From Candidatus Coatesbacteria bacterium (GTDB lineage: Bacteria; RBG-13-66-14), in contig WJLX01000012.1 of assembly GCA_014728225.1 (NCBI GenBank), forward strand, positions 591 through 64,590: 64,000 nucleotides of DNA, written 5' to 3'. Below, in pieces: positions 4,934 through 56,481 of the stretch. Numbering within the stretch: position 1 is the first letter of the stretch; each line of letters opens with the position of its first letter. The notes under the pieces are model-generated. The model was not told the DNA's origin. It saw only the letters and a program-made list of their open reading frames with translations, and ran no database searches. Position numbers and translations under genes: made by a program.

Positions 4934-6766
4934 TCAACGGCTGATCACAAACCGTCGGGTCGCCCCTGAACCTTCTCCCGCCAGTCGGGCGAGGTAGACG
5001 CCCGGTTGGTATTGTTCCACATCGAGGAGGAGGGTGTGACGACCGGGGGTCGCCTCCAGGGTTTCCGTAGTTATCCGGCGGCCGGTGAGATCATAGATAG
5101 TCAGCGTCGCTGAGGCGCAGCCCTCGGGCAGGGTGTAGCTGAGCGTCAGGGCGTCGGCGGCCGGGCTGGGATAGGGCTCGTGAAGGGTCAGCCGCTGCGT
5201 CTGCGGTGGCGCGACGACGGCCTCCGTCGGGCCGTAGCGCTCGACCGCGCCCGCGTCCCCGGTGATCTCCAGCCAGTAGGAGTAAGCCTCGCCGGGGGTG
5301 ACGCCCCGGTCCAGCCAGCGGGTGGTTCGCCCGTCGAGGGCACCCGAGACGGCGATGGGATTCTCCCGGCCCCGCAGGACGCGAAGGCCGGCGGGGGGCT
5401 CGCCCTCGACGGCCCAGTCGACCAGGACGCCGTCCCCGCCGGGCGCCGCGCTCAGCTCGACCGCGCCGACGGGGAAGTCCTCGAGGGGGTCGGCCAGGGC
5501 GGCGGTGTAACCTACCGCGGCGCGCAGGACGTCGGTGCCGAAGGGCCAGTAATCCTCGTAGTTGGCCAGCAGGTCCGTGGTGGAATGGTAATGCGGGTTC
5601 TCGTCGTAATCGTTCTCGATCAGCAACAGGGCGGGGTAGCCGTTGTCCCAGAACGGCGAGTGGTCGCTCCACTCGAAGGCGGGGTCGTAGCTGGTGGCGA
5701 CGTTCAGGTCCGGGACGTACTCGGCGGCGAAGGTCTCCAGCCCCGTGGCCAGATCGCTGGATTGGCCGTCGTAGGGCACCCAGACGGTGTAGCCCTCCAG
5801 GCCGTCCCACAACACCATGTCGACGTTGATCACGCCCTGGATGTCGTCGCCGGCGGCGTAGGCCTGGTCGGCGTAGTAGGTGCTGCCGCACAGCCCCTGC
5901 TCCTCGGCGCCGAAGCAGATGTAGCGCAGGGTGGCGTCGAATTCATACTGGGAGAGGACGCGGGCGGCCTCGAGTACGGCGGCGGCGCCGCTGCCGTTGT
6001 CGTCGGCCCCGGGGGCGTCGTCCTCGCTGTTCCAGGGATAACCCGCCGTCGAGTCCAGGTGGCCGCAGATGATGTAGATCTCCTCCGGCGTGACCTGCCC
6101 CGGCTGCTCGGCGATGACGTTGTAGCAGGTGAAGGTGCTGCCGTACCAGGGGTCGGCGGTGAAGGTCTGAATCTCTCCGTCCAGGCCCAAACCGTCCAGA
6201 TAGTCCTCGGCGTAGAGGCAGGACTGGTAATACTGATCGTGCCGGGCGCTGCGGGTGACGAAGTCCTCCAGCTCCTGGATGACGTCCTTGATCTCGTCCT
6301 CGCTGACGGCGTCGACGATCTCGCTCAACTCCTGGTCGTCGGACCACGCCGGTGACGGACCGCCCGAGCTTTCGACCATGCGCGCCGGCGAGGCCGTTCG
6401 CAGGGGCAGGACGCCGTGGAGACCCTCGAGGTTGAAGCCCGGCGGCAGCTCGCCGTTCCAGCGCACCAGATAGAGCTGGTCCCGCCGCCAGACGACCACG
6501 CCCAGTTCGGCCGCTTTGCCCACCGCGGCCGGATCGTTGACCAGAACACGCAGGTACTCCCGGGTCTCGGCGTCACGGTCCAGGACGACGGCGTCGGGCG
6601 TCGCCTCGCCGAGGCAGACCGCGTAGTCGGCGCCCCGAAGAACGATCCGGGCGTCCGCGGGCGGAACGTCGCCCTCGTACAGCACCAGATCGGCGGCGCC
6701 GCCAGCGACGGCGAGCAACAGCAGAAACAACAAAGAAATCAAGGAAATCGCTCGGCGGATCGACAT
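4934..6766 (-). CDS. secreted M28-family aminopeptidase with PA domain and C-terminal T9SS-type sorting (Por secretion CTD) domain
   Basis: Start taken at the internal Met (MSIRRAISLISLLFLLLLAVA, a signal peptide). The upstream in-frame extension would overlap repeat copy B. M28 motifs: GHLDS, ADDNGSGAAAVLE, EEQGLCGS. C-terminal segment TLTIYDLTGRRITTETLEATPGRHTLLLDVEQYQPGVYLARL. Confidence 0.75.
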   Translation of the reverse strand: MSIRRAISLISLLFLLLLAVAGGAADLVLYEGDVPPADARIVLRGADYAVCLGEATPDAVVLDRDAETREYLRVLVNDPAAVGKAAELGVVVWRRDQLYLVRWNGELPPGFNLEGLHGVLPLRTASPARMVESSGGPSPAWSDDQELSEIVDAVSEDEIKDVIQELEDFVTRSARHDQYYQSCLYAEDYLDGLGLDGEIQTFTADPWYGSTFTCYNVIAEQPGQVTPEEIYIICGHLDSTAGYPWNSEDDAPGADDNGSGAAAVLEAARVLSQYEFDATLRYICFGAEEQGLCGSTYYADQAYAAGDDIQGVINVDMVLWDGLEGYTVWVPYDGQSSDLATGLETFAAEYVPDLNVATSYDPAFEWSDHSPFWDNGYPALLLIENDYDENPHYHSTTDLLANYEDYWPFGTDVLRAAVGYTAALADPLEDFPVGAVELSAAPGGDGVLVDWAVEGEPPAGLRVLRGRENPIAVSGALDGRTTRWLDRGVTPGEAYSYWLEITGDAGAVERYGPTEAVVAPPQTQRLTLHEPYPSPAADALTLSYTLPEGCASATLTIYDLTGRRITTETLEATPGRHTLLLDVEQYQPGVYLARLAGEGSGATRRFVISR

Positions 6767-6820
6767 ACGAACTCCATCGCGTTGGTGGTCGAAGGGCGGG
6801 CGGTTGATACCGGAGCAGCG

Positions 6821-7009
6821 CCCGAGAGACCGTTGACGAAACGGCTGCGCGGTCGGGCTCGTCGCGGTCGGAACCGGCACGGTTTTTGCGGAGGCCGACC
6901 GTTAACGTCGGCCGTAACGGTCGCCGAGATGCAAAAACCGTGCCGGTTCCGACCGCCGTGGCGTTGTCGGGTGTCGGCGCGGCGGGCCTTGCGTCAACGG
7001 TCTCTCGGG
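6821..7009. repeat. nested palindromic repeat element, copy B (core 6866..6954, GGAGGC-first orientation)
   Basis: Same 22-bp arms as copy A. Inner hairpin GACCGTTAACG...TAACGGTC. Outer inverted repeat CCCGAGAGACCGTTGACG (6821-6838) / CGTCAACGGTCTCTCGGG (6992-7009). Confidence 0.8.
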
Positions 7010-7026
7010 CGGCGGAGCGGGACGGC

Positions 7027-8286
7027 TCACTCGACCTGGTAGAGTTCGAGGTTGACGAAGCTGGCGAAGCCGCGGCGGACCTTGAGGTTGGTCATCGGCT
7101 GCAGGGTGCGCAGCTCGGTGGGGTCTTCCTCGCCGAGGAGGGCCCGGGCTTCCAGGAGGTAGTAGGTTCCGGGCGCCACCCCGACGAGCTGGAACTCGCC
7201 GATGTAGTTGCTGGTGGTGGTCTTGTAGGGGCGGCTCTCCTCGTATTCCTCCCGGGTGCGGTAGACCGCCACCGTGGCTCCCGGGACGGCGGTGCCCCGG
7301 ATCAGCACCCGACCGACGACGACGCCGGTGGTCTGGGGGTCCATCTCGATGGTGTCGGAGCGGCCGTAGCGTCCGCCGTCGAGGGTGGGGATGCGCAGGG
7401 AGTTGAAGATCGAGATCAATTCGCGCAGGTGGGCGTGGAACTCGTCGGCGGGCAGGCTGGCCTGCATGGTGTAGCCGACGCTGTTGCGCAGCAGGTAGCA
7501 GACGACGTGCCTGGTCGTTACGGTGGTTGCGCTGACGGGATCGGTGACGCCGTCATCGTAGACGGCCAGGTAGGGTTCGCCGCTGGCCAGTTCCCGCAGC
7601 AGTTCGGCCATCTCGTCCAGCTCTTCCTGATCCGCGGCGCTTTCAGCCTCGGCGGCGCGGACCTCCGGGGTCTTGTAGGGCACGCCCGTGGTCTGCTGGA
7701 GGGCTATCAGCCCTTCCATCACCGTCATATCCTCGATGATCACCTCACCGGCGTCGGGGTCGTCGTCGGCGGGTTCGTCGCTAGGCGTTTCCGGCGCGGG
7801 TGTCGGCTGCTCGCTCTCGGGGGGCGTTTCCGGGTACGCTTCAGGATCGAGGCCCTCCTCGGGCAGCGCCTCGTCGTCGAGCTCGCCGACGAGGGGTTCG
7901 GCGCTGTATTCGATCGGCCGGGGCAGCAGTTCGGGCTCCCGGCCCTCCCAGGCCTCGATCAGGGCCTGGACGCTGGTTTCGGCGCCGCGAACGCCGTAGC
8001 TGTTGCGGGCCAGCTTGCGATGGTCCGACGGGGTGTCGAGGGAGTCCATCACGTCGACGTAGACGCGGAAGCCGACGCGGCCGTCGGGGCTCTGCAGCAG
8101 GACCAGGGCGGCGCCGACGTTCTTTTCCACGCTCCAGCCCGCCGGGGCGGTGACCTGGAAGCCGTAGTCGGTGTTTGAGTAGGTCTGGCCGGTGATCGAG
8201 GTGCGGGCCGTCGCCGGGGCGAGGATACCCCAGGCCAGCAGCGCGGCGGCGGTCAGGCTCCAGAACGGTCGGCGCAGGTGTTTCAT
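7027..8286 (-). CDS. secreted hypothetical protein with acidic Pro/Glu-rich linker and C-terminal carboxypeptidase-regulatory-like beta-sandwich
   Basis: Internal Met start (MKHLRRPFWSLTAAALLAWGILAPATA, signal peptide). Low-complexity PETPPESEQPTPAPETPSDEPADDD. C-terminal VVGRVLIRGTAVPGATVAVY. Confidence 0.5.
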   Translation of the reverse strand: MKHLRRPFWSLTAAALLAWGILAPATARTSITGQTYSNTDYGFQVTAPAGWSVEKNVGAALVLLQSPDGRVGFRVYVDVMDSLDTPSDHRKLARNSYGVRGAETSVQALIEAWEGREPELLPRPIEYSAEPLVGELDDEALPEEGLDPEAYPETPPESEQPTPAPETPSDEPADDDPDAGEVIIEDMTVMEGLIALQQTTGVPYKTPEVRAAEAESAADQEELDEMAELLRELASGEPYLAVYDDGVTDPVSATTVTTRHVVCYLLRNSVGYTMQASLPADEFHAHLRELISIFNSLRIPTLDGGRYGRSDTIEMDPQTTGVVVGRVLIRGTAVPGATVAVYRTREEYEESRPYKTTTSNYIGEFQLVGVAPGTYYLLEARALLGEEDPTELRTLQPMTNLKVRRGFASFVNLELYQVE

Positions 8287-8429
8287 CGCGTCCATTATAG
8301 CACCCCGGACGCCCGGGTCAATGCCGTCGTTGATGCCCCTTGCAGTACCGGCCTCCAATCGGCTATGCTATTAGCCGTCCAGGGTCGATTCTACCGCGAG
8401 TCCCCGGGAGGGCGACTTTGCCGCTGTTC

Positions 8430-11400
8430 ATGTTCACCGACATCCAGGGTTCGACCCGGCTGTGGGAGAAGCACGGCCGGGCGATGGCCGAGATTCTCGA
8501 GCGCCACGACCGCCTGGTGGAGCAGACCGTCACCGAGTTCGGCGGGCGGATCCTCAAGCATCTGGGTGACGGCTTCTTTATCATCTTCAACGAAGGCGGC
8601 GATCCCCTGGGCTGCGCCCTGAGCCTGCAGCGGCGGATCGGCGCGGCGGACTGGAAACCCGTCGGCGATCTGCGGGTGCGCACGGCCCTGCACGCCGGCG
8701 AAGCCGAGCGCCTCGGCGAGGACTATTTCGGTCCGGTGATCAACCGTACGGCCCGGCTCTGCGACGCCGGCTGGGGCGGTCAGATCCTGCTCTCCCCCAG
8801 CGCCGCCGACTACGGACCCCTGCCCGAAGGGGCCGAACTGGTCGAGCTGGGCTCGCACCAGTTGCGCGACCTGGACCGGCCCCAGGAGATCCTGGCCCTC
8901 GACCACCCCGAGCTCCCCCTGCGCAGCTTTCCCGAGCTGCGCACGATGAGCGCCCGACCCAACAACCTGCCGCCCCAGTCGACCCCCTTCGTCGGCCGCG
9001 TCGAGGAGCGCCACGAACTGCACCGGCTCCTCGATAAGGAAGGCGCCCGCCTGCTGACGATCACCGGCCCCGGCGGGATGGGCAAGACCCGTCTGGCCCT
9101 CCAGGTGGCCGCCGAGCGGCTCGACCGCTACGACGACGGCGTCTACTTCGTCCCCCTGGCGCCGCTGGCCGACGTCGAGCAACTGGTCCCCGCCGTCGCC
9201 GAAGCTTTGTCGTACAGCTTTTCGCCCGGCTCGGAGCCCCAGGAGCAGCTGCTCAACTATCTCGAGGGCAAGCGCCTGCTGCTGGTCCTCGACAACTTCG
9301 AGCACCTGACTGCCGGGGTCGAGCTGGTGGCCGATATCAACGAGCGCGCCCCGTCGATTAACGTGCTGGCCACGAGCCGGACCCGCCTCAACCTGCGGGG
9401 CGAGCAGCTCTACACCATCGCCGGCCTGCAATTCCCCCGGCACTGGGAGCCCGCGCCCGAGGATCATTACAGCGCCCTGCACCTGTTCCTGGAGAGCGCC
9501 CGGCGTCTGGAGCCCGACTTCGTCATCACCCCGGACAACGTGCGCCAGGTTATCCGCGTCTGCAGCCTGGTCGGTGGGATGCCCTTGGGGATCGAGCTGG
9601 CGGCCAGTTGGGTGCGCACCCTGGAGCCCGCCGAGATCGTCGAGGAACTCGAGAGCGGGTTGGACTTCCTCGACACCGAGCTGCGCGATCTGCCCGAACG
9701 CCACCGCAGCCTCCTCGGGGTGGTCGACTACTCCTGGCGCCTGCTGAGCGAAGGGGAGCGGACCGTCTTCAGCTCGCTGGCCGTCTTCCGCGGCGGTTGC
9801 GACCGCGCCGCCGCCAAGGCCGTCCTCGGCGTCGGCCCCCGGGAGCTGATGAAGCTGGTGGATAAGTCCCTGCTGGAACGGGGCAGCGACAAACGCTATC
9901 GGATGCACGAAGTGGTGCGCGTCTTCGCCGAGGAGAAACTGGCGGCGGAACCCGAGCGACGGGAGAAGCTGCGCCTGGCCCATGTCGAGTACTTCAACGA
10001 GTTCCTGCAGCGGCGGCGCAAGGGTCTCAGCCGGGAAGAGGGCGCCGCTCTGCAGGAGTGCCGCCGCGAAGCCGACAATCTCAACGCCGCCTACGGTTAC
10101 GCCCTGAACACCGGCGATCGCGAGCTGCTCGCCGATTATCTCGAGGTCTTCTCCGCCTACATCAACGCGACCTACCGCCACCGCGAGCACCTGGAGCTCA
10201 GTCGCCGGGGCCTGGAGGTCCTGCCGCGACGGGACGATCGCGCCGACGGTCTGCTGCTGGCCGCCCAGGCCTCCTCCCTGGCCTCCCTGGGGCGCTACAA
10301 GGAGTCGATCGATTACGCCCGGCGCTCCTACGAGATCTTCGAGAAACTCGACGACGTCAGCAACGCCTACTACGTCATCTACCGCCTCGGCGCGGCCTAC
10401 TTCCGCACCTTTCAGATCGACAAGGCCCGCGAATACTTCATCAAGGCCCTCGAACTGGCTCGACGGCTGGACAGGCCCATGAGTCTGGCCAGCGCGCTGC
10501 TGGCCATCGGCGATATCGAGAACGCCAGCGGCAACCTGCACCAGGGGCTCGAGTACTGCAACGAGGCTCTGGAGATCAACCGCCGCGAGGGCCGCCGGAC
10601 CGGCGTGGTCAACTGCCTGATCACCGTGGCCGACATCTACAACCACCTGGGCGACCTGCGCACCGCCTACGAGCATCACGCCGAGGCCGTGCGCATCGCC
10701 GACGAAATCACCTACCTCCACGGCAGCGCCCTGGGGCGTTCGGCCCTCAGCGAGGTCGGTAACAAATTGCACCGGGGGCGCGTCAACCTCATCACGGCGC
10801 GGCGCTCCCTGGAGTTGTTCCAGGAGATCGGCGATGTCTACTGGCAGAACAACGCCCGCAGCGAGCTGGGCATCGCGCTGACCGACGAGGGCCAATACGA
10901 CGAGGGTCGCAGAATGCTCGATTCGGCGTTGAGCAGCTATCACGAAGAACGCGTCTCTCCGCTGATCGCCTACGTCGAGAGGTATCTGGGTCGACTCGAA
11001 CTCTTCAACGACGATCCCCACGCCGCCCTCGCCCACTTCACCCGCAGCCTCGAGCATTACTCGCTGAAAGAGTACTGGAGGCCCAGGCTGCAGGTGGAAC
11101 TCTACCAGGTCTGGGCCCGTCTCGCCGCCGGAGACAACCGGCGAACGCTCGCCGAGCTGGAGAGTATCGCCGCCGATTTCCACCGCTGCCTGAGCGGCGA
11201 AACCGATGAAAGCGGCGGCGTCATCGGGATCGGCCTGCACACCCTGCGGGGGCTGTCGCTGCGCTCGAGCGGCGCGGACCCGGCTGCAGAGCTTGACGAG
11301 GCCCGCCGCCTGCAGATCGCCGAGGAGAACGGTGAAGTCGACGATTGCGGCCTGCTGCTGGGGCTGGAGTTGTCGAGGGTCCTGCCCATGGACCCCGCCG

Positions 11401-11567
11401 CCCGGCTGATCGCCCGGCTGGCCGACGACGAGCGCACTCCGCGCTATTTCGCCCTCCAAGCCGCCGAGCTGCGCCGGGAACGCGGCATGCCCGTCGTCAA
11501 GCTCGAAGCCCCCGAGGACTACAACCGGGGCTACCAGGCGCTGCTGGCGGAGCTCGCCCGGCCCTGA
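8430..11567 (+). CDS. class III adenylate/guanylate cyclase fused to STAND AAA ATPase and TPR repeats
   Basis: Start at MFTDIQGSTRLWEKHG. Cyclase motifs: FTDIQGST, GDGFF, GPVINRTARL. Walker A ITGPGGMGKTRL; Walker B LLLVLDNFEHL. C-terminal TPR-like repeats. The antisense 1080-aa ORF 8391..11633 is an artefact. Confidence 0.7.
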   Translation: MFTDIQGSTRLWEKHGRAMAEILERHDRLVEQTVTEFGGRILKHLGDGFFIIFNEGGDPLGCALSLQRRIGAADWKPVGDLRVRTALHAGEAERLGEDYFGPVINRTARLCDAGWGGQILLSPSAADYGPLPEGAELVELGSHQLRDLDRPQEILALDHPELPLRSFPELRTMSARPNNLPPQSTPFVGRVEERHELHRLLDKEGARLLTITGPGGMGKTRLALQVAAERLDRYDDGVYFVPLAPLADVEQLVPAVAEALSYSFSPGSEPQEQLLNYLEGKRLLLVLDNFEHLTAGVELVADINERAPSINVLATSRTRLNLRGEQLYTIAGLQFPRHWEPAPEDHYSALHLFLESARRLEPDFVITPDNVRQVIRVCSLVGGMPLGIELAASWVRTLEPAEIVEELESGLDFLDTELRDLPERHRSLLGVVDYSWRLLSEGERTVFSSLAVFRGGCDRAAAKAVLGVGPRELMKLVDKSLLERGSDKRYRMHEVVRVFAEEKLAAEPERREKLRLAHVEYFNEFLQRRRKGLSREEGAALQECRREADNLNAAYGYALNTGDRELLADYLEVFSAYINATYRHREHLELSRRGLEVLPRRDDRADGLLLAAQASSLASLGRYKESIDYARRSYEIFEKLDDVSNAYYVIYRLGAAYFRTFQIDKAREYFIKALELARRLDRPMSLASALLAIGDIENASGNLHQGLEYCNEALEINRREGRRTGVVNCLITVADIYNHLGDLRTAYEHHAEAVRIADEITYLHGSALGRSALSEVGNKLHRGRVNLITARRSLELFQEIGDVYWQNNARSELGIALTDEGQYDEGRRMLDSALSSYHEERVSPLIAYVERYLGRLELFNDDPHAALAHFTRSLEHYSLKEYWRPRLQVELYQVWARLAAGDNRRTLAELESIAADFHRCLSGETDESGGVIGIGLHTLRGLSLRSSGADPAAELDEARRLQIAEENGEVDDCGLLLGLELSRVLPMDPAARLIARLADDERTPRYFALQAAELRRERGMPVVKLEAPEDYNRGYQALLAELARP

Positions 11568-11791: not shown

Positions 11792-12457
11792 ATGCTGGAG
11801 TTGCGCGACGTCAGTCTGGAACGGGCCTGCGGCCTGGGCGGACCCTTCATCCGCCGGAAGCGCTTCACCGTCGCGGCGGGGCTGAATTGGCGCCTGCCGG
11901 AGCGGGGTTTGGCGCTGATTCGGGGTCCGGCGGGCTGCGGCAAGACCAGCCTGTTGCTGCTGCTGGCGGGCGCGCTCAAACCGGCCGCCGGTGAGTTGTT
12001 TATCGACGGTCGGCCGACGCGGCGCCGGGGTGGGCGTCGCCGCCGTCGGCTGTTCGCCGGAAACCTCTATCTGGGGCCGGAACCCGCGGCCTGGCAGTTG
12101 GAGGAGCGGGTGGGGGAGCTGTCCGACGAAGCCCGGGCTTGGGCCGCGGAGCTGACGGGGCTTTATCACGACGATGCAACGCGGCTGGGTGAGCTGTGCC
12201 GCTGGGGGCGGCTGGCTCTGGCCCTGGGGGCGCGGCTGGCTCTGCGGCCCCGGGCGCTGCTGCTGGATGATCCCGCTGCCGGATTGGACCCGGGCCGGAT
12301 CGACGATTTGGTGGGGGCGATAAAAAAAGCGGCCGCCGATCGTTTGGTGGTCGCGGCTGCGGCGGAACCGGGCTCGCTAGGTGCGGCCGCCGGGTTGACT
12401 TTGGTACTCGCTCAGTCGTCGCCGGGGCACTCCTCGAGCCGGGCGGCGAACTCGTAG
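11792..12457 (+). CDS. ABC-transporter-like ATP-binding protein (degenerate)
   Basis: Start MLELRDVSL. Walker A GPAGCGKTS. Walker B-like LLLDDPAAGLD. The upstream part of ORF 11345..12457 is Arg-rich junk. Confidence 0.45.
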   Translation: MLELRDVSLERACGLGGPFIRRKRFTVAAGLNWRLPERGLALIRGPAGCGKTSLLLLLAGALKPAAGELFIDGRPTRRRGGRRRRRLFAGNLYLGPEPAAWQLEERVGELSDEARAWAAELTGLYHDDATRLGELCRWGRLALALGARLALRPRALLLDDPAAGLDPGRIDDLVGAIKKAAADRLVVAAAAEPGSLGAAAGLTLVLAQSSPGHSSSRAANS

Positions 12458-12918
12458 ACAGCGTTGAGTTGACTCTCGGTCTGGATCGAGCCCGGGCGCA
12501 GGCGACGGACGTAATCGACGGCCTCCTCGGCATCCCAGCCCCGGCTGATCAGATAGGCGGCGATGACGGTGCCGGTCCGTCCCAGACCCATGTAGCAGTG
12601 GACGAGGATCGCCTCGCCGGCCCGGCGGGCCTCCTCGATGACCGCCACGGCGCGACGCAGCTCGGCGATGCTCGGGGCGGTGAAGTCGACGATCGGCAGG
12701 TGTTCGATGCGGCTGAAGGGTAGTTTGCCCAGCCCGACGCCCAGGGGTACCTCGGTCAGGGTCAGCAGGCGGCGGATACCGAGCTGCCTCAGGGCCTCCA
12801 GCTCGCGCCGCAGCCCCGTATAGGTGCCCGGCTTGCCCATGGCGGCCAGTTCACCCTCAATGTACCAGGTCAGATCGGGCAGGTCGGAGTGGGTGTTGGA
12901 GTCGCTCAAGGTTTTCAC
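12412..12918 (-). CDS. dual-specificity protein phosphatase
   Basis: CX5R active site VHCYMGLGRTG in a DSP-like fold context. Confidence 0.7.
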   Translation of the reverse strand: MKTLSDSNTHSDLPDLTWYIEGELAAMGKPGTYTGLRRELEALRQLGIRRLLTLTEVPLGVGLGKLPFSRIEHLPIVDFTAPSIAELRRAVAVIEEARRAGEAILVHCYMGLGRTGTVIAAYLISRGWDAEEAVDYVRRLRPGSIQTESQLNAVYEFAARLEECPGDD

Positions 12919-20939: not shown

Positions 20940-22508
20940 CTATTTACGGGTCGGGGCTTTGGGGTGCATCACGGCGCAGGGGATGATCATCTCGGGCATC
21001 GAGACGCCGCCGTGCTGGAAGGCGCCGGCGTAGTAGCGTCGCTGCTCGTGCTGACGGTAGGAGTAGACGAAGTTGTAGTCCTCGAGGGCGATCAGGTAGT
21101 TCTTGCCGATGCGCTCGGCGGGCAGGCGCCATTCGCCCGGACGGTCGATCAGCAGGGCGCCCTCGCCCTCGTAGCGCAGGTTCTGGCCGAACCACAACCG
21201 CAGGCCCTTGCTGGTGCGCTTGTCACAGTAGGCGATCACGGCCCGGCGGGTCTGGATGCTGCCGTGATCGGTGGTGATGACCACGGTGCAGTCGCGGCGG
21301 GCCAGCTCCTTGAGCCCGGCCAGCAGCTTCGAGTGGGCGAACCACGAGGCGGCCACGCTGCGGAAGCTCTGCGGCGTGTTGCTCATCTCGCTCAGGACGT
21401 CGAAGTAGGCCCGCTCGTGAGTCAGCACGTCGACGAAGTTGATCACCAGGGCGTAGAGGGTGGGATCACGCCAGCCGCGGAACAGCTCGGCGATATCGGC
21501 GTCGGCGCTGGTGCCGCGGGCCTTCTTGTAGCGCGGCCGTCGGGGCGGCTGGACGCCGTGGCGCTCCAGGCAGGCCCGCATCAGCTCGGCCTCGAACTTG
21601 TTCAGGCTGGCGTCCTCTTCGGAACGCTCGATCCACCAGTCGGGATACCGCTCGGCGATCTGGGCCGGGAAGAGGCCGGAGAAGATGGCGTTGCGGGCGT
21701 AGTTGGTGCTGGTGGGGATGATCGAGAAGTAGGGGAAGTCGTCGATCAGCCAGTCGGCCTCCAGGAAGCGCCGGAACAGCAGCCAGGCGTCGTAGCGCAT
21801 GGCGTCGATGACGATGAAGTACACCGGCCGTTTCTGGCCCAGGAAGGGGAAGACCACCCGGGGCAGGATGTCCGGGGCCAGCAGGGGCCGGCCGCCCTCG
21901 TCGGCGATCCAGTCGCGGTAGTTGTCGATGACGAAGCGGGCGAAGTGGGCGTCGTCCTCGCGCAGCAGTTGGTGGTGCAGGTCGTAGAGGTCGCGGTCCC
22001 GGGCGCTCTCCAGGGCGATATCCCACTTGACCAGGCTGACGTAGCGCTCCAGCCAGTCGTCGGGGTCGGCCAGCTCGTCCCGGGAGCTGTCGAGCTGGCG
22101 CAGCTCGGTCATGTAGCGCTGGACCAGGCTTTGGGCCTCCAGGGCCCGGGCCTCGAGGATGCGCTTGAGCACGCTGACCAGCTGGCTGGGCTTGACCGGC
22201 TTGACGACGAAGTCGTCGGCCGCCAGGCCGTAAGCCTCGTTCATCAGCTCCTCCTGCTCCCCCTTGGTGACCATCACCACGGGGAGCTCGGGGCGGATGC
22301 GCTTGAGTTCGGCCAGGGTCTCGGTGCCGGTCAGGCCCATCATCTGCTCGTCGAGGAGGACGAGGTCGAAGTGCTGCTCCAGCACGGCGCGCAGGGCGTC
22401 GTCGCCGTTGGTGACCCCGGCCACCTCGTAGCCCCGGCGCTTGAGGTACAGCACCTGGGAGCGCAGCAGCTCGATCTCGTCATCGACCCAGAGGATCTGC
22501 TTCTTCAT
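20940..22508 (-). CDS. porX: PorX-like response regulator (REC receiver + PglZ/alkaline-phosphatase-like domain)
   Basis: MKKQILWVDDEIELLRSQVLYLKRRGYEV... 522 aa. The domain order and many residues match how I remember Porphyromonas PorX: ILWADDEIDLL, PVVMVTK, YARNAIFSGL, FQHGG. Confidence 0.8.
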   Translation of the reverse strand: MKKQILWVDDEIELLRSQVLYLKRRGYEVAGVTNGDDALRAVLEQHFDLVLLDEQMMGLTGTETLAELKRIRPELPVVMVTKGEQEELMNEAYGLAADDFVVKPVKPSQLVSVLKRILEARALEAQSLVQRYMTELRQLDSSRDELADPDDWLERYVSLVKWDIALESARDRDLYDLHHQLLREDDAHFARFVIDNYRDWIADEGGRPLLAPDILPRVVFPFLGQKRPVYFIVIDAMRYDAWLLFRRFLEADWLIDDFPYFSIIPTSTNYARNAIFSGLFPAQIAERYPDWWIERSEEDASLNKFEAELMRACLERHGVQPPRRPRYKKARGTSADADIAELFRGWRDPTLYALVINFVDVLTHERAYFDVLSEMSNTPQSFRSVAASWFAHSKLLAGLKELARRDCTVVITTDHGSIQTRRAVIAYCDKRTSKGLRLWFGQNLRYEGEGALLIDRPGEWRLPAERIGKNYLIALEDYNFVYSYRQHEQRRYYAGAFQHGGVSMPEMIIPCAVMHPKAPTRK

Positions 22509-22561
22509 CGGCGGCTCTCTTCCAGGATCCCCCGGTTAACGTTACGGACGGCCCGCCGGTT

Positions 22562-23815: not shown

Positions 23816-23816
23816 C

Positions 23817-28861: not shown

Positions 28862-30859
28862 GTGTCCATGGCGCGTAAACAACGAACCGGCGGGTTCTGG
28901 GACAGCCCCTGGCCCAAGGTGATCATCGTGGCGGCGGCGCTGCTGCCCCGGCTGCTGCTGTTGGGCGCCCTGGCGCCCAGCGAGTTCTTCACCGAACCGG
29001 TGATGGATTCCCAGGTCTACGACGATTGGGCCTGGACGATCGTTTCCGGGGAGTACCAGGGCCAGGCGGAGCATTACCTCAACGGCTCCTACTACATGGG
29101 GCCGCTGTACGCTTACTTCCTGACCCTGATCTTCGGGGTTTTCGGTCACAGCCTGCTGGCGGCGCGGCTGGTGGGGGCGCTCATCGGCGCGGCGACGGCC
29201 CTGCTGGTTTCCGGGATCGGCAACCGGCTGTTCGGTCGGAAGCTGGGCTTCGCCGCCGGCCTGGCGGCGGCCCTCTACCCGGCGCTGTTCTTCTACGACG
29301 CGGCCCTGCTGATGAGCGTGCTGCTGGTCTTCCTGACCGCCCTGGCGCTCTACCTGGTGCTGCGTGGGCAGCAGGGGGACCGCTGGTACCACTGGCTGGG
29401 CGCCGGGGCCTGCCTGGGCTGCTACGCCCTGGGCCGGGCCAACATCCTGCTCTTCGCCCCGGTGCTGGCGCTCTGGGTCTTCTTCAGTTTCTGGAAGAAA
29501 CCGGGGGAGGACGGCGTCGGCTCCGGTCTGGGCGGGCGCTGGAAAACGGAGCGGCGGCGGGGCTTCAAGCGCGTCGTGCTGCTGGCCGCCGGGACGCTGC
29601 TCTTCGTCGCGCCGGCGACCATCCATAACGCCGTCGAGGGCGGCGAGTTCGTCCCGGTGACGGCCAACGGCGGCATCAACTTCTACATCGGCAACAACGA
29701 GCTGGCCACCGGCGAGTACGTCAACCCCTCCTGGATCGATGTCAAGCACGACCCCGGCGGACTGTCCTACGTCGAGGGCCGGCTGGGCGAGCAGTTGACC
29801 TACGGCGAGGCCTCGCGCTGGTGGAGTGCGCGGGCCGGGGAGTGGATCGCCGACAACCCGGGTCGCTGGTTGGGGCTGCTGGGCACCAAGGCCTTCCTCT
29901 TCGCCCACCGCCACGAGATCATGCAGGTGGCCAACATCCACGTCATCCTGGGCTGGGAGACGCCGTCATGGTTCTTCGGCGTGCTGTTCACCCTGGCCCT
30001 GGCGGCCTTCGTCTGGGGGCGCGAACAGCGGCGACGGATGGGCGCGCTGTGGCTGTTCCTGTTGGTTTACGCCCTGTCGATCGTCGTCTTCTTCATCACC
30101 TCGCGTTACCGATTGCCCTTCGTCGTCGTCGCTCTGCCGGCGGCGGTCTGGGGGGCGCGGGAGCTGGTCCGGCGCTCGCGGCGGGGCGGCAGGGTGTTGG
30201 TAAAAACCCTGGCCCTGGTGGTGCCGCTGTTGGTGGTGACCAACATCCCCCTGAGCTGGTTGGGGATCGAGCTCCAGGGCAACGACGCCGCCCTGGCCAA
30301 CAACCGGGGCACGATCTACCTCGAGCAGGGCGCCTACCAGTTCGCCGCCGAGGAGTTCGAGCGCGCCGCCCGGGCCAACCCCAAGCTCTACGCCGTCTAC
30401 ACCAACCTGGGGATCGCCAACCTGCGCCGGGGGATGATCACCGAGGCCCGTAATAACTTCCGGCAGGCCCTCTCTCTCTACCCGGACCCCAAGGCGATGA
30501 TCAACCTGGGCGGGATCTACCTGGAGAAGGTCCAGAACGGTGAGCGCCAGTACCTCGACGATGCCGGCCGCTACCTGGCCCGGGCCGTGGAGCTGGTTCC
30601 GGGTAACCCCAACGCCAACATTAACTTCGCCATCTACCAGTTGGCCCTGGCCGATTACGAAGGCGCCGCCGACACCCTGGAGCGCGGGTTGGTCTACCGG
30701 CCGGACAATCCGCGCCTGCTGTTCTATCTGGGCCATCTCTACGCCAAGGAGCTGGAGCGTCCGGCGCGCGCCGTCGAGCTGTTGGAACGCTTCCTGGAGA
30801 CCCGGCCCTGGACCGCCGAGCACAATGTGGCCCTCTCCTGGTTGGAAGCGCTGCGCTAG
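28862..30859 (+). CDS. GT39/PMT-ArnT-family membrane glycosyltransferase with C-terminal TPR repeats
   Basis: N-terminal polytopic domain with DD/YY-rich loop (GSYYMGPLYAYFL), typical of dolichyl-phosphate-mannose/ArnT-type transferases. C-terminal ~250 aa are TPR (LANNRGTIYLEQGAYQFAAEEFERAARANP...). Confidence 0.65.
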   Translation: MSMARKQRTGGFWDSPWPKVIIVAAALLPRLLLLGALAPSEFFTEPVMDSQVYDDWAWTIVSGEYQGQAEHYLNGSYYMGPLYAYFLTLIFGVFGHSLLAARLVGALIGAATALLVSGIGNRLFGRKLGFAAGLAAALYPALFFYDAALLMSVLLVFLTALALYLVLRGQQGDRWYHWLGAGACLGCYALGRANILLFAPVLALWVFFSFWKKPGEDGVGSGLGGRWKTERRRGFKRVVLLAAGTLLFVAPATIHNAVEGGEFVPVTANGGINFYIGNNELATGEYVNPSWIDVKHDPGGLSYVEGRLGEQLTYGEASRWWSARAGEWIADNPGRWLGLLGTKAFLFAHRHEIMQVANIHVILGWETPSWFFGVLFTLALAAFVWGREQRRRMGALWLFLLVYALSIVVFFITSRYRLPFVVVALPAAVWGARELVRRSRRGGRVLVKTLALVVPLLVVTNIPLSWLGIELQGNDAALANNRGTIYLEQGAYQFAAEEFERAARANPKLYAVYTNLGIANLRRGMITEARNNFRQALSLYPDPKAMINLGGIYLEKVQNGERQYLDDAGRYLARAVELVPGNPNANINFAIYQLALADYEGAADTLERGLVYRPDNPRLLFYLGHLYAKELERPARAVELLERFLETRPWTAEHNVALSWLEALR

Positions 30860-30871
30860 GGGGACGTCGAG

Positions 30872-33800
30872 GTGGATGAGCTGCGGCGCGATCTGGAACG
30901 CTTTCTGCCCCCGGGGCTGGTGCGCTACGCCGTCAGCGACGCCGAGCGCATCGACGCCCTGCAGCGGGAGCTGGGCGTTCTCGAACGCCGCCACCACACC
31001 CTGGCCCTGGCCTGGCCTCTGCGCGGGGTCCTCGAGGGCGGGGGCTTTTTGCTGCCCGGAACGGTGCTGGCCGGCGATGTCGGCGCCCAGGACCACCCGA
31101 CCCACCGGCGGGCCGCCGAGGTGCTGCTGGCGGCCCTCGAGGAGTACAACGGCCGGCTGTTGGCCTGGGGCGCGGGGACCTTCCTGGCCTTCTTCCCCGG
31201 AGTCACCGCCTCGGGCTCCAGCACCCAGGCCAATTATTTTCGCGCCTGCCAGACGGCCAGCGAGATGGCCGAGCTCGAGCTCCCCGGCCTGCGCCAGGCC
31301 TTGACGGCGGGGCGGGGTGGTCTGGTGGTCTGCGCCGCCCTGGAGCGCAAGCTGACCGTGCCCGTCGGTGGAGCCGTCGGCGCGGCCCTGACCCTGACCG
31401 CGGCCGCCGAGCCGGGGACGATCCGCCTGTCGACGACGATGGCCGAGGTGGTCGCCGAGCGCTTCCAGGTCGTCGAGGGCTCCGGCGGTCCCCTGTTGGG
31501 AACCATCCTCTCCGGCCGTCGGGTCAACAAGGCCCTCGTCGAAGACCAGGCCCCCGTGCCGCCCGAGCATCTCCTCGACCGCCTGGCCCAGGCGGCGGCG
31601 GGGATGGAGCGCGCCCGGCCCTGGCTGGCCCCCTGGCAACTCGAGCCCCTGGGCGCCCGCTTCAGCGGACGGCGACCGCTGACCGCCGAGGCCGTCCTGG
31701 CCCTGGCCTGGCCGCCACCGGGCGAATCGGCCAACCGCGGCGCCGCCCTCGAGGAGCGCCTGCGCGTCGAGGCCGAACTCTGCGCCAACTGGGACGGCGA
31801 GCTCTGGGGGTTGGTACCGCACCCCGACGGACTCTGCAGCGCCTACGCCTTCCCCGACGTCCGCGCCGCCGGTGCGGCGGCCCTGGCCGTGCTGGCCGAG
31901 ACCGACGATCGCGGCGGGGCCATCGAGGTCGGCGAACTCTGCGATCATTACCTGCGGGGTCCCCGCTCCTCGGCGGCGGCTCCGGCGGGGAGGGCCTTGC
32001 GTTCGGCCTGCGGTGAGGCCCTGCTGGCCCCGACCGGGGAGCTGGTCTGTCATCCCGCCAGCCGGGACGAGGTCGAGCCGGAATTCGAAATCGTCCGCAG
32101 CCTCGAAGTCGCCGATCGCCCCCTGGCCGTGCTGCGCGCCGCCGCCGAGCGCGAGGAGGCCGGCCGGCCCCTGTTGGGCTGCGGCGAGCTGCTGGAGAAA
32201 ACGGACGCCTGGCTGGAGGAGTTGCGCCGCGGCGGCTCCATCGTCGGCGTGGTCACCGGCGGCCCCGGAGCGGGTAAGAGCCGGGCCTGCCGCGAGCTGC
32301 GCGACCTGTTCGCCGAGCTGGGCGACGCCCACCTGTTCCGTTGCCAATCCTGGTGGGCCTACGATCCCTACAGCCTGTGGCGGCGGACCCTGCTGGCCAT
32401 CTGGGGCCCCCCGGCCAGCACGGCGGCCAACCGGGCCCTGCGCGAGGCCCTCGGCGAGGCGGCCCCGCGCCTGGGCGAGTTCATCAGCCGCTTCACCGGC
32501 GGCGAGCTCTCCGAACCGCTGTGGGGCTTGAGCCCGCGCCAGAAGGGTCAGATGGCCGGCGAGCTGCTGCTGGCCGCCCTGCGCGCCCGCGAGGGCCGAC
32601 CCCTGGCCCTGGTCATCGACGACGCCGACTGGCTCGACGCCGGCAGCCTGCAACTGGTGCGTTCGTTGAGCGCGGCCGGTCTGCCCCTGGCGGTGATCCT
32701 CTGCTGCCGCCGGGCCCCGGAGGAGCTGAGCGCCCAGTACGCCGAACTCCAGCCCCTCGAACCCGACGAAGCCGCCGACCTGTTCGCCGACGCCGCCGGG
32801 CGTCCCGGGCCTTTCATCGAGCGCCTGCCGCGACGGGAGCTGGTACCGGGCAAGCTGTCCCACCTGGCCGCCCTGGCCGCCGCCGGAGCCGATCCGGCCC
32901 TGGGCGCTCGGCTGTCCCTGGAGCGCCTGGGGCAGGAGCTGCTGCGTCTGGAGCCCGACGGCGAGGCGCCGCAACTGGTCTCCGTCCTGGGGCCCCGCTT
33001 CGGCGCCGGGGACCTGGCCGCCGTCACCGACGGGGTCAGCGAGCTGCGCCGCCGGCTCGAATCCAGCCGCCTGCTGGAGCGCAGCGGCGGCGAGTACGCC
33101 TTCCGCGGCCGCGCCGTCTGGCAGGCCGCCTACACCGCCCTGGAACCTCGCCGTCGCCGGGAGCTGCACTTTCGCGCCGCCCGTTTCTACCAGCGCCAGC
33201 ACCGCGGCGTCGTCGCCCAGGCCGTCGCCCACTTCATGAACTGCGGCGATCCCGGTGAGCGGGTCACGGCGCTGGAGCTCGCCGGAGAGCGCGCCGCCGC
33301 CGTCGGCTCCTTCACCGCCGCCCGCCGCTACCTCCGCGAAGCCGTCGCCGCCGCCACCAACCGCCGCGACACCCGCCGCCTGATCGCCAAGCTGGCCGCC
33401 ATCCACACCCACGCCCGCAACTACCCCGAGGCCGACCGGCTCTACGACAACCTGCTCGAGGAGGCCGAGGAAGCCGAGCAGCGCCAGGCCGCCGAGTTGG
33501 CCCTCGATCGCGCCGAGCTCCAACTCGCCGTCGGCGATCCCGAGATGATCGAGCGCTGGGTCGCCCGCGCCGCCGCCCTGGAACCCGAGCTCGATCCACC
33601 GCGCCGGTCCTATCTACTCGGTGAGGCCGCCAAACTGCGCGGCGACGCCGAGGCGGCCCGCGAACATCTGGGTCGGGCCGCCGAAGCGCCCACCCCCGAG
33701 GGCGCCCGGGCCGCCGTCCGCCTCGGTCGACTGCTCCTCGGGGCTGATGAAACCGCCGAGGCTCTGGAATTTCTCCGGCGCGCCGAAGCCTGGGCCCGGC

Positions 33801-35014
33801 AGCAGAGCCATGTGGCCCTGATCGTCGAGGCCGTCCGCCTGGCCGCCGACGCCCACGCCGCCCGCGGCGCCGTCGACGAGGCCCGCGCGGCCCTCGAACA
33901 GGCCCTCGAGCGCGAGCGCGCCCTGCTGCAGGTCCAGCCCGTCGCCGAGACCCTGAGCGCCCTGGCCGATTTCTACGCCGCCGCCGGGGAGCGCCGCCGG
34001 GCCCTCGACTGCCTGACCGAGGCCGAGGCTACCTTCACCCGCCTCGAACTGCCCGTCAAACGCCTCGACGCCCGGGAGCGCCGCGCCGCCGTCAGCGCCG
34101 ACCTGGGCCGGATCGCCGTCGCCCGAGAGATCCTCGAAGAGGTGAGCGTCAAGCGCCGCGGCCTGCGCGACCGTTTCGGCGCCACCCGCTGCGCCCTGCT
34201 CGAGGGCCGCTTGGCCGCCCTGCAGGGTGACTGGCGCACCGCCAACAATGCCTACGACCAGGCCCTCCTCGGCGCCCGCGAGGTCGCCGACGAAGAGCTG
34301 ATCGCCGCCGCCCGACGCGGCCACGCCCACTCGCTGTTACATCAAGGAAGACTCGCCGAGTTCGACGAAAGCCTCGGGGAACTGGAAGCCGCCGAAGCCG
34401 CCTTGCTGAGCGGCGAACTATACCGCCTGCTCTACCTCTTCGACACCGCCGCCCGGGAGCACCGCCGGACCCTCGACGCCGACCCCGACTCCCTCGAACG
34501 CCGCCTGGCCCTGGCCCTCGATCACCTGAGCGCCGGCAACAGCCGGGCCGGAAAGCGCCTGCTCGCCGAAACCGCCTGGCCGCCGGCCCCCAGACTCGAA
34601 CTGGAACTCGATTACCGTCGGGCCCGGGTGCTAGTGACCCTGATCGAACACAAACCCGCCCGGGAAACCGAGCTCCAACGCTACCGCGAGCTGGCCGAAG
34701 GCGCCGACGCCGTCGTCCACCGCGCCCTGGCCGCCAAGGACGCCGCCGCCGGCCTGGTCCTCGACGGTGAACTCGCCGCCGCCCGGGAGCTCATCGACAG
34801 CGCCCTGACCCGCGAACCGCCCGCGATCGTCGGCTGGCAGTTGCAGTTCTTCGCCGGTCTGCTCGCCGGACGCGACGGCGACGCCGACGCCCGCGGCGAG
34901 TTCTTCGGCCAAGCCCTGCGTTCCCTCGAAGACTTCCGCCGCCGCCTGCCCGACGCCGAACTCCAGCGACGCCTCCAGCGCAGCGAAACCTACAACGCCC
35001 TGCGCCGCGGCTGA
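30872..35014 (+). CDS. giant STAND NTPase with N-terminal degenerate (pseudo) nucleotide-cyclase-like domain and extensive TPR repeats
   Basis: GTG start. P-loop VVTGGPGAGKSRACREL near aa 470. N-terminal segments align to class III cyclase motifs but lack the metal-binding Asp residues (TLALAWPL; GRLLAWGAGTFLAFF; GLVVCAALERKLTVPVGGAVGAALTLTAAAEPGTIRLS). About 800 aa of TPR-like helices follow. The antisense 1185-aa ORF is an artefact. Confidence 0.6.
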   Translation: MDELRRDLERFLPPGLVRYAVSDAERIDALQRELGVLERRHHTLALAWPLRGVLEGGGFLLPGTVLAGDVGAQDHPTHRRAAEVLLAALEEYNGRLLAWGAGTFLAFFPGVTASGSSTQANYFRACQTASEMAELELPGLRQALTAGRGGLVVCAALERKLTVPVGGAVGAALTLTAAAEPGTIRLSTTMAEVVAERFQVVEGSGGPLLGTILSGRRVNKALVEDQAPVPPEHLLDRLAQAAAGMERARPWLAPWQLEPLGARFSGRRPLTAEAVLALAWPPPGESANRGAALEERLRVEAELCANWDGELWGLVPHPDGLCSAYAFPDVRAAGAAALAVLAETDDRGGAIEVGELCDHYLRGPRSSAAAPAGRALRSACGEALLAPTGELVCHPASRDEVEPEFEIVRSLEVADRPLAVLRAAAEREEAGRPLLGCGELLEKTDAWLEELRRGGSIVGVVTGGPGAGKSRACRELRDLFAELGDAHLFRCQSWWAYDPYSLWRRTLLAIWGPPASTAANRALREALGEAAPRLGEFISRFTGGELSEPLWGLSPRQKGQMAGELLLAALRAREGRPLALVIDDADWLDAGSLQLVRSLSAAGLPLAVILCCRRAPEELSAQYAELQPLEPDEAADLFADAAGRPGPFIERLPRRELVPGKLSHLAALAAAGADPALGARLSLERLGQELLRLEPDGEAPQLVSVLGPRFGAGDLAAVTDGVSELRRRLESSRLLERSGGEYAFRGRAVWQAAYTALEPRRRRELHFRAARFYQRQHRGVVAQAVAHFMNCGDPGERVTALELAGERAAAVGSFTAARRYLREAVAAATNRRDTRRLIAKLAAIHTHARNYPEADRLYDNLLEEAEEAEQRQAAELALDRAELQLAVGDPEMIERWVARAAALEPELDPPRRSYLLGEAAKLRGDAEAAREHLGRAAEAPTPEGARAAVRLGRLLLGADETAEALEFLRRAEAWARQQSHVALIVEAVRLAADAHAARGAVDEARAALEQALERERALLQVQPVAETLSALADFYAAAGERRRALDCLTEAEATFTRLELPVKRLDARERRAAVSADLGRIAVAREILEEVSVKRRGLRDRFGATRCALLEGRLAALQGDWRTANNAYDQALLGAREVADEELIAAARRGHAHSLLHQGRLAEFDESLGELEAAEAALLSGELYRLLYLFDTAAREHRRTLDADPDSLERRLALALDHLSAGNSRAGKRLLAETAWPPAPRLELELDYRRARVLVTLIEHKPARETELQRYRELAEGADAVVHRALAAKDAAAGLVLDGELAAARELIDSALTREPPAIVGWQLQFFAGLLAGRDGDADARGEFFGQALRSLEDFRRRLPDAELQRRLQRSETYNALRRG

Positions 35015-55392: not shown

Positions 55393-56481
55393 GTGGGAGC
55401 AGTGACAGTCAAACAGATCGCCCTGGAGGACATCGAGCGCGGGATCCGCGCCGTCCTGACCGAGAAGGGGCGCGACAAGGAAGAGCTCATCCAGGGCTTC
55501 CTCGACATCCTCGGCCGGGGGATGGGGGTCAGCCGCGCCTGCTACAACGAGAAGCAGGGCCAGAGCTTCATCACCGCCCTGGAGTGGTGCAACGACGGCA
55601 TCAAGCCCTCCCTGGGCCAGAAGCTGCCCGACCGCTTCATGCGCGCCCTGGTCACCGGCGACATCCACTACTTCACCCGGGAGACCGCCGCCGGGTTGCT
55701 GCCCAAGGAGCTGAAGTTCATCGCCGGCACCGTGCTGTCGATCCTGGAGTTCCTGCAGAACATCACCGCCATCATCGCCGGGCCGATCTACATCGACGGC
55801 CAGATGACCTCCGTGGTCTCCCTGGATATCTGCCGGGAGCATCGGGAGCGCAAGGACTGGAACCGGGAGCAGCTCGACTTCACCGCCAAGATGATCCGCC
55901 TGCTGGGCGACGAGCTGCGCCGCCGTCACTGGTCGGCCCCGATCAAAGCCGAGCCCAAGTCCGCCCTGTTGGTTCTCGATCTGGTCCAATCGACCAACCT
56001 GGTCCTCGACTACGGCGACGACATCTACATCGACCAGATCGATCTGTTTCACAAGGCGTTCATGGAGCACCCCTCCTCCCGGGAGCTGATCTTCATCAAG
56101 AACACCGGCGACGGCTTCCTGGTCGTCTACCGCAACGCCCGGGACTGCTTCACCGTGGCCTGGGACTTCCTGCTCGACAACCCCCTGCAGGACAGCCGGC
56201 TGCGGATCGGCATCCACTGGGGTTCCATCAAGAGCGGCGTCGGCGGCGACCCCCTGGGCGTCGAGGTGCACCGCGTCTTCCGTATCGAAGGTGTCAGCAC
56301 CCGGGACCGCGTCTTCGCCACGGGCTTCCGCAAACTGCCGCCCCACGGGCGGATCATGGCCACCCAGGAGATCCTCAACCTGCTGACCAAGGAGCAGCGG
56401 CGCTACTTCCACCGCGCCGGTCGCTTCCGTCTGCGCGGTTTCGCCGAGCCCTGCCCCCTCTGGGTGGCCAGCCGCGATTGA
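55393..56481 (+). CDS. GAF-domain-containing class III adenylate/guanylate cyclase
   Basis: GTG start (55393 or 55402). N-terminal GAF-like ~180 aa. C-terminal cyclase domain: ALLVLDLVQST...GDGFLVVY...RLRIGIHWGS...GDPLGVEVHRVFRIEG. Confidence 0.65.
   Translation: MGAVTVKQIALEDIERGIRAVLTEKGRDKEELIQGFLDILGRGMGVSRACYNEKQGQSFITALEWCNDGIKPSLGQKLPDRFMRALVTGDIHYFTRETAAGLLPKELKFIAGTVLSILEFLQNITAIIAGPIYIDGQMTSVVSLDICREHRERKDWNREQLDFTAKMIRLLGDELRRRHWSAPIKAEPKSALLVLDLVQSTNLVLDYGDDIYIDQIDLFHKAFMEHPSSRELIFIKNTGDGFLVVYRNARDCFTVAWDFLLDNPLQDSRLRIGIHWGSIKSGVGGDPLGVEVHRVFRIEGVSTRDRVFATGFRKLPPHGRIMATQEILNLLTKEQRRYFHRAGRFRLRGFAEPCPLWVASRD

Follow-up and report, generated by a model that had tools for sequence, protein, structure and literature searches.

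The window analysed here, a stretch of 64,000 nucleotides from a Candidatus Coatesbacteria contig (WJLX01000012.1; G+C content 68.5%), encodes two large STAND-type signalling ATPases that lie 19 kb apart, called gene A and gene B below, together with a smaller gene carrying a putative divergent cyclase domain (gene C). A preliminary description of this DNA had presented genes A and B as paralogous cyclase-STAND-TPR proteins, one catalytically active and the other regulatory, with gene C as a third, GAF-regulated cyclase; the open reading frames (ORFs) and motif strings that it quoted are real and were located in the translations of genes A and B. Near-identical copies of both genes share one contig of a deposited Candidatus Coatesbacteria metagenome-assembled genome, where they are named 'tetratricopeptide repeat protein' (MBD3398906.1, gene A) and 'AAA family ATPase' (MBD3398926.1, gene B). 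What is new at this locus is gene B, a STAND ATPase with a predicted tandem pseudo-cyclase at its N-terminus, for which the structural support is moderate; gene A is of a kind already known. Read jointly, with a probability of about 0.62, gene A would be an ordinary cyclase and gene B a lineage-specific C1-C2-STAND-TPR pseudo-cyclase with two dead domains, and the two would not form a pair.

Gene B and its orthologues

Gene B and its predicted parts occupy the following positions, with lengths given in amino acids (aa).

30872..35014, + strand: gene B, a Coatesbacteria-specific STAND ATPase with a predicted tandem pseudo-cyclase N-terminus, 1380 aa
30977..31516, + strand: domain 1 of gene B, predicted cyclase fold, about residues 36-215 (from AlphaFold2, Foldseek and hhalign)
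31565..32146, + strand: domain 2 of gene B, predicted to be cyclase-like and more divergent, about residues 232-425 (from AlphaFold2 and Foldseek)
32189..32716, + strand: AAA_16-type P-loop NTPase of gene B (Walker A GGPGAGKS, Walker B LALVIDDADWLD; AAA_16 at 52 bits)
33269..34951, + strand: helical/TPR sensor region of gene B (weak Pfam TPR, profile and hhalign matches)

The NTPase and sensor regions can be assigned by sequence. Pfam places AAA_16 at residues 440-603, its 52 bits lying above the cut-off of 32.6 bits, together with AAA_22 and weak TPRs. Both the Walker A motif (residues 463-470) and the Walker B motif (LALVIDDADWLD, residues 578-589) are conserved across orthologues, and a profile of the gene B family matches TPR proteins of the PDB at 3e-9 over residues ~900-1170. 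Public names for the protein are 'AAA family ATPase' or 'TPR protein' only. Between the Walker motifs lies a stretch of about 100 residues (approximately residues 471-577; 32282-32602) in which the Trp-rich motif WW.YDPYsLWRR.LLA.WG is strongly conserved; the profile alignment shows nothing corresponding in the gene A family.

The first ~430 residues are known from about ten Coatesbacteria orthologues only, as judged by Pfam, PDB-sequence and HMMER searches. Residues 1-440 have no Pfam match, and the halves 1-225 and 226-440 searched alone have none at E<=10; Pfam and NCBIfam scans returned no cyclase, and phmmer found no match among all PDB sequences. A word-indexed search of 5.8 billion proteins returned two proteins, both of them Coatesbacteria orthologues, and a profile hmmsearch of 1.84 billion representatives returned four, all full-length orthologues; a genome scan added six loci, from assemblies deposited as Candidatus Coatesbacteria or as 'uncultured bacterium'. 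Searching with the NTPase region retrieved one orthologue and no family with intact tandem cyclases. At the level of sequence, the proposed cyclase homology of the gene B N-terminus is invisible.

Of the orthologues, seven were recovered end to end, all of them intact and 1380-1383 aa long; genome contigs supplied four, and the search of protein representatives the other three. The ratio of non-synonymous to synonymous substitution rates (dN/dS), given for unsaturated orthologue pairs, is 0.20-0.43 in domain 1, 0.11-0.24 in domain 2, 0.05-0.25 in the NTPase and 0.13-0.48 in the TPR region, and both cyclase-like domains are under purifying selection. The possibility that gene B is a pseudogene was rejected on the strength of the seven intact full-length ORFs and of dN/dS values below 0.5 in every domain. 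A further orthologue, P0001 from a JGI metagenome contig of 3748 bp, is normal as far as about residue 455, beyond which it becomes Arg/Pro/Gly-rich and unalignable; a frameshift in the assembly seems a better account of this than a real truncation.

Fold and catalytic columns of the gene B N-terminus

An AlphaFold2 (AF2) model of residues 1-453, built from 6 sequences, has a mean predicted local distance difference test score (pLDDT) of 53.5; within residues 61-215 the block means are 62-89, except at 111-120 (53) and 151-170 (32 and 52). The model consists of two successive beta-alpha-beta-beta-alpha-beta-beta-alpha-beta-alpha-beta-beta units. When it was compared with the PDB by Foldseek, all of the 50 best matches were class III cyclases, and ranks 1-24 were occupied by the C1-C2 core of human soluble adenylyl cyclase (sAC), with the exception of rank 20, the AC9 soluble domain. 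The alignments to the sAC core reach E-values of 3e-12 to 1e-9 over ~450 columns; their template modelling (TM) score, obtained from a low-confidence model, is only ~0.3, and thus the relative placement of the two domains is not reproduced. Single-domain cyclases (Cya2, CyaC and RhoGC) give target-normalised TM scores of 0.53-0.68, in matches of the size of domain 1 only. Domain 2 modelled alone (residues 232-435; mean pLDDT 55.3) finds class III cyclases in 39 of its best 40 Foldseek matches (E 6e-5 to 1e-2, TM 0.25-0.37), led by Ma1120 (6e-5) and followed by Rv1900c, sAC and trypanosome cyclases.

Profile-profile comparison by hhalign aligned domain 1 with the cyclase alignment of the gene A family in the expected register (P 7e-4, probability 26%). 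In this alignment GRLLAWGAGTFLAFF falls on GRILKHLGDGFFIIF, and VGGAVGAALTL..PGTIRLS falls on FGPVINRTARL..GGQILLS. Domains 1 and 2 also match each other weakly over alpha4-beta7 (P 1.5e-3).

The support for a cyclase fold in gene B is therefore structural and moderate, and on these models domain 1 is very probably, and domain 2 probably, a cyclase-homology domain. Two of the checks suggested in the preliminary description bear on this: alignment to PF00211 finds nothing, with no Pfam match even at E<=10, and AlphaFold/Foldseek comparison returns only cyclases among the best 50 matches, from low-confidence models. The single N-terminal cyclase-like segment proposed there is retained in kind, a cyclase fold without catalytic residues being the most likely case, but it becomes two predicted tandem domains (~36-215 and ~232-425). 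With two tandem domains, the predicted layout of gene B resembles that of full-length sAC rather than that of gene A. The 'same layout' claimed for the two genes thus extends to the P-loop and the TPRs (AAA_16 at 52 bits, profile TPR match at 3e-9) and fails for the cyclase part, of which gene A has one copy and gene B is predicted to have two.

Several observations weigh against a cyclase origin of these domains. A profile of 10 orthologues weakens the domain 1 hhalign result to P 0.013 and a probability of 3%, and because the signal fades as orthologues are added, no sequence-level homology is claimed; domain 2 gives no hhalign signal against the gene A family cyclase alignment (P 0.4-0.5). 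Both AF2 models are of low confidence (pLDDT 53.5 and 55.3, from multiple sequence alignments of 5-6 sequences), the global TM scores are poor (0.31 for the two-domain alignment, 0.25-0.37 for domain 2), and the register of beta1 in domain 1 is ambiguous (43-50 vs 60-69). Furthermore, profile and NTPase-region searches revealed no intact-cyclase intermediates joining gene B to active tandem cyclases.

The first 430 residues may instead be a lineage-specific ferredoxin-like alpha/beta module that is not derived from a cyclase, the Foldseek matches being an artefact of low-confidence models. This would agree with the lack of Pfam (E<=10) and PDB sequence matches for the N-terminus, with the profile search of 1.84 billion proteins that yielded gene B orthologues only, with hhalign probabilities that never exceed 26% and drop to 3%, and with the pLDDT of ~55 and the low TM of domain 2. 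We nevertheless consider it unlikely, given that the Foldseek lists are filled by class III cyclases (50/50 and 39/40) and not by GGDEF, ACT or other ferredoxin-like folds, and that domain 1 attains TM 0.53-0.68 against single cyclase domains. Independently of the fold, hhalign puts the GDG hairpin and the N..R helix alpha4 at the very positions that the fold assigns to them, and cyclase domains of known families likewise precede the AAA_16-TPR module.

The catalytic columns were read from an alignment of 11 gene B sequences, in the hhalign register for domain 1. The column of the second metal-binding Asp in domain 1 holds Gly or Ala (WG[AG]G, residues 99-102), that of the substrate Lys holds Ala, Val, Leu or Gly, the Asn column holds Gly or Glu, and the Arg column Thr, Leu, Gly or Ala. 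The residue in the first-Asp column depends on the strand taken as beta1: taking the conserved TLA.AWP, as in the preliminary description, gives Trp48, and taking residues 60-69, as in the AlphaFold model, gives D69, an Asp that occurs in the window protein alone. In domain 2, AlphaFold models LALAWP as beta1, mirroring the TLA.AWP register; orthologues have Gly, Ala or Arg in place of D319 in the beta2-beta3 hairpin, and neither Asn nor Arg stands in the columns of alpha4. Across the alignment, no acidic residue, Lys, Asn or Arg is conserved at the canonical columns of either domain in either beta1 register.

These columns bear out the earlier statement that gene B has lost its catalytic Asp positions, none of which is conserved in the 11 sequences. 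The replacement of GDG by AWGAGTF (residues 98-104) is reproduced by the profile-profile alignment. The proposed replacement of F.DI.GFT by TLALAWPL (residues 43-50) is ambiguous, as the AlphaFold model places beta1 of domain 1 at 60-69; neither register has a conserved Asp.

A tandem, pseudo-heterodimeric cyclase needs one complete site, with the Asp pair in one domain and Lys/Asp/Asn/Arg in the other. Neither of the cross-domain combinations that would give such a site exists in gene B. As the Asp pair, the Lys and the Asn/Arg are missing from every orthologue, cyclic nucleotides would not be made by the canonical mechanism, and gene B is predicted to be catalytically dead in this sense.

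An Ala-Trp-Pro motif is nearly invariant in both halves of the N-terminus (residues 47-49, 31010-31018; residues 279-281, 31706-31714). It stands at or next to the position of the first metal-binding Asp of active cyclases and looks like a signature of the gene B family.

Genes A and C and their relation to gene B

Genes A and C and their parts are listed here, gene A residues being numbered from TTG 8340.

8418..11567, + strand: gene A, a class III adenylyl cyclase - NB-ARC STAND NTPase - TPR protein, 1049 aa from TTG 8418
8430..8858, + strand: cyclase homology domain of gene A (PF00211; D34, K73, D77, D128, N135 and R139 intact)
8985..9389, + strand: NB-ARC-type P-loop NTPase of gene A (Walker A GPGGMGKT, Walker B LLLVLDNFEH)
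10257..11174, + strand: TPR sensor region of gene A (TPR_12 3.9e-26, TPR_MalT and PDB TPR matches)
55393..56481, + strand: gene C, 362 aa from a GTG start, with a putative C-terminal divergent cyclase domain (~190-349)

The gene A ORF opens at 8340 and stops at 11567. Its start is likely TTG 8418, which is residue 27 and the point where homologues and public gene calls begin; this codon is favoured by a GGGAGG 7 nt upstream and by agreement with public gene calls of 1049 aa. ATG 8430 is an alternative used by some public calls (1045 aa), and the earlier placement of the start at 8430 is at most four codons off.

Pfam finds PF00211 at residues 31-173 (28.7 bits; cut-off 21.9), NB-ARC together with AAA_22 at residues 228-347 (NB-ARC 33.8 bits; cut-off 23.5), and strong TPR_12 and TPR_MalT matches at residues 640-940. 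Against the solved Mycobacterium avium cyclase Ma1120, the cyclase domain gives an E-value of 2e-19; the motifs of the domain are FTDIQGST (32-39), KHLGDGFF (73-80), EDYFG (127-131) and INRTAR (134-139). The two metal-binding Asp, the substrate-specifying Lys/Asp and the transition-state Asn/Arg are all present; among 120 homologous cyclase domains, D34, D77 and R139 are conserved in all 120, D128 in 118, K73 in 115 and N135 in 105. The Lys/Asp pair of class III cyclases specifies ATP, and gene A is accordingly predicted from its residues to be an adenylyl cyclase that makes cyclic AMP (cAMP). The characterisation of gene A as a catalytically intact cyclase-STAND-TPR protein is upheld by all six catalytic residues and by the PF00211, NB-ARC and TPR matches.

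Gene A is an ordinary member of its family and adds nothing new to it. More than 6000 database proteins match it at E<1e-10; almost all of the listed matches share PF00211, NB-ARC and TPR, and the name 'predicted ATPase/class 3 adenylate cyclase' is frequent among them. Thousands of proteins from WOR-3, Fermentibacteria, Acetothermia, Anaerolineae and Coatesbacteria show 35-54% identity to gene A. Bacterial adenylyl cyclase-NB-ARC-TPR proteins have the same domain order, the catalytic residues and intact Walker motifs, and nothing notable sets gene A apart from them. The AfsR-type NB-ARC-TPR module and the mycobacterial cyclases Rv0386, Rv1358 and Rv2488c are related to its class; the C-terminal LuxR HTH of these mycobacterial proteins is presumably absent from gene A. 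Survey context exists for mycobacterial multidomain cyclases (PMC2447327).

With regard to mechanism, class III cyclases are obligate dimers. STAND proteins are activated by inducer binding, ADP-to-ATP exchange and multimerisation (PMC4381067, PMC6468293). By analogy, a ligand sensed by the TPRs of gene A would trigger nucleotide exchange and oligomerisation of the NTPase, which would bring the N-terminal cyclase domains together as the obligatory dimer and lead to cAMP. Convergent with the 3' end of gene A is a dual-specificity or protein tyrosine phosphatase-type phosphatase gene (12412-12918, - strand).

Gene C scores 13 bits against PF00211, below the 21.9-bit cut-off, and its putative cyclase domain matches that of Rv1900c at E 0.0015. 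It carries D196, K236, D240, D286 and R297, with H293 at the Asn column. A His at the transition-state Asn column (VHRVFR, residues 292-297, 56266-56283) is also found in the solved Rv1900c (LipJ), where GVAVHIGAR corresponds to GVEVHRVFR of gene C; Rv1900c differs in having an alpha/beta-hydrolase domain, where gene C has another N-terminal region of 185 residues. On this account gene C might encode a cyclase of low activity, or an asymmetric one. Its earlier designation as a cyclase can be kept only tentatively, as the ORF exists and resembles Rv1900c but falls below the PF00211 threshold. The label 'GAF-regulated' has no support by sequence: residues 1-185 match no Pfam family at E<=10, and no GAF appears among the PDB sequence matches.

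BLASTP between genes A and B finds nothing significant (best E 0.04, in the TPRs), and their NTPases belong to different Pfam families, NB-ARC in gene A and AAA_16 in gene B. The NTPase-arm-TPR modules of the two families are homologous at the profile level (hhalign probability 99.4%, E 7e-22, 21% identity), as is expected for any two STAND-TPR proteins. About 17 unrelated genes separate A from B, among them a phosphatase, an aspartate decarboxylase, a short-chain dehydrogenase, DsrE-like proteins, TGT, TilS, a two-component pair and a GGDEF protein.

The conserved neighbours of gene B are others, as seen when the window was compared with eight orthologue loci (L001-L008, 10 kb around each gene B orthologue).

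28862..30859, + strand: PMT_2 + TPR glycosyltransferase, 12 bp upstream of gene B on the same strand, adjacency conserved
35258-37888: MutS, downstream of gene B

The order glycosyltransferase (PMT_2 + TPR)-B-MutS is conserved in related genomes: the glycosyltransferase adjoins gene B in the window, L004, L008, L001 and L002, and MutS does so in the window, L003 and L005-L008. The PMT_2 glycosyltransferase and gene B may be co-transcribed. In the eight orthologue loci, the sequence up to 10 kb from gene B contains no gene resembling A or C. An operon or neighbourhood link between A and B was rejected on synteny, the neighbours of B being the glycosyltransferase and MutS.

These data bear on the model of the preliminary description, in which A and B are a coupled paralogue pair and the dead domains of gene B regulate the live cyclase A or C, for example by heterodimerising with it. 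Both genes do lie in one genome at a distance of 19 kb, both are STAND-TPR proteins with modules homologous at 99.4% probability, and the geometry of class III cyclases implies that pairing a live with a dead domain would leave no complete active site, which would make the heterodimer inhibitory. Such coupling is nonetheless very improbable in view of the missing pairwise similarity, the different NTPase families, the ~17 housekeeping genes in between, the glycosyltransferase and MutS as conserved neighbours, and the eight loci without an A- or C-like gene; moreover, the tandem domains of one chain would be expected to pair with each other, as in sAC. Genes A and B are distant relatives that stand independently of each other, and not a duplicated active and regulatory pair. 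The idea of close paralogues fails on the BLASTP value of 0.04, the NB-ARC vs AAA_16 assignment and an identity of 21% visible at the profile level only; that of an active plus regulatory pair in one neighbourhood fails on the distance, the intervening genes and the synteny of gene B.

Some further genes of the region were noted. A PD40 beta-propeller protein, a histidine kinase and a PglZ-domain response regulator occur 5-10 kb from gene B in the window (20940-25340, - strand) and in L008 (1-4340); in the most divergent locus, L001, the same trio lies directly downstream of gene B on the same strand (5275-9211, + strand). Such proximity could reflect either a recurrent association or mere synteny. 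The L001 locus also has two adjacent small proteins with cyclic nucleotide (cNMP)-binding domains about 5 kb downstream of the gene B orthologue (10381-10848 and 11047-11514, - strand). In the window, a diguanylate cyclase fused to NHL repeats (25371-27539, - strand; GGDEF, 136 bits) is a further nucleotide-second-messenger enzyme, and three successive genes at 51140-53127 (+ strand), encoding a Roadblock/LC7 protein, an Arf-like small GTPase and a DUF4388 protein, are read as an MglB/MglA-like polarity or GTPase module.

A predicted pseudo-cyclase output on a STAND ATPase

Two known systems resemble gene B. Full-length sAC (ADCY10) combines C1-C2 with a predicted STAND P-loop domain (PMC12802110), and sAC has bacterial relatives (PMC11006738). 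Gene B shares with it two successive domains of predicted cyclase fold, an AAA_16/STAND P-loop and TPR-like repeats, and differs in having no detectable sequence similarity to sAC, in lacking the C1 metal aspartates and the C2 Lys/Asn/Arg in all orthologues, and in being confined to Coatesbacteria. Where sAC is recognised by the C1 aspartates, the C2 Lys/Thr/Asn/Arg and bicarbonate-site residues, no conserved catalytic residue was found in gene B. In the absence of a sequence link, only a resemblance in predicted fold and architecture is claimed, and not membership of the sAC family. STAND ATPases of the MalT and PH0952 type have in common with gene B an AAA_16-type NTPase, an arm and a TPR sensor; gene B differs from them in its effector, which is predicted to be a tandem pseudo-cyclase instead of a DNA-binding domain, and in the Trp-rich stretch of ~100 residues that separates its Walker motifs. 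A literature search found no relevant description of class III pseudo-cyclases in STAND proteins.

In the reading preferred here, gene B would be an AAA_16/MalT-like STAND ATPase whose effector consists of two extremely diverged class III cyclase-homology domains. With its intact P-loop, it presumably follows the same TPR-NTPase switch logic as other STAND proteins. The most probable role of the two domains would be that of an output without catalysis, offering either a surface for binding or a pocket for a ligand, which switching of the NTPase would expose or set free; in the simplest case they would form an intramolecular C1-C2-like pair that shows a conserved surface or a degenerate pocket. 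An enzyme that makes a nucleotide second messenger, or performs another nucleotidyl transfer, with non-canonical residues would count against this reading and could draw on invariant acidic or polar residues in domain 2 (E300, E302, D346, D358, S366 and E402) and on D69 and D319 of the window protein near canonical positions, but it is hardly credible, as D69 and D319 are unconserved and belong to separate domains, neither domain keeps a conserved acidic pair at beta1 and the beta2-beta3 hairpin, and Ala, Gly, Glu or Leu stands wherever the Lys, Asn and Arg would be expected.

A bolder proposal, which we hold to be decidedly speculative, is that gene B is a bacterial pseudo-cyclase of full-length sAC architecture, its paired dead domains serving as a receptor for a nucleotide or other small ligand, or as an oligomerisation-gated decoy that captures cyclases A and C and stops cAMP synthesis. 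If true, this receptor or decoy would constitute a pseudoenzyme output for a STAND ATPase; to our knowledge, no such output has been described before.

These results are of restricted practical impact, since the family occurs in a single uncultivated phylum only and the support from structure is no more than moderate. They do carry a caution for cyclase censuses, in that sequence profiles wholly miss domains like those of gene B. If the fold holds, the cyclase-STAND-TPR design, including the tandem C1-C2 arrangement, would persist over long evolutionary times after the complete loss of catalysis, and pseudo-enzyme domains would be usable as outputs of STAND ATPases.

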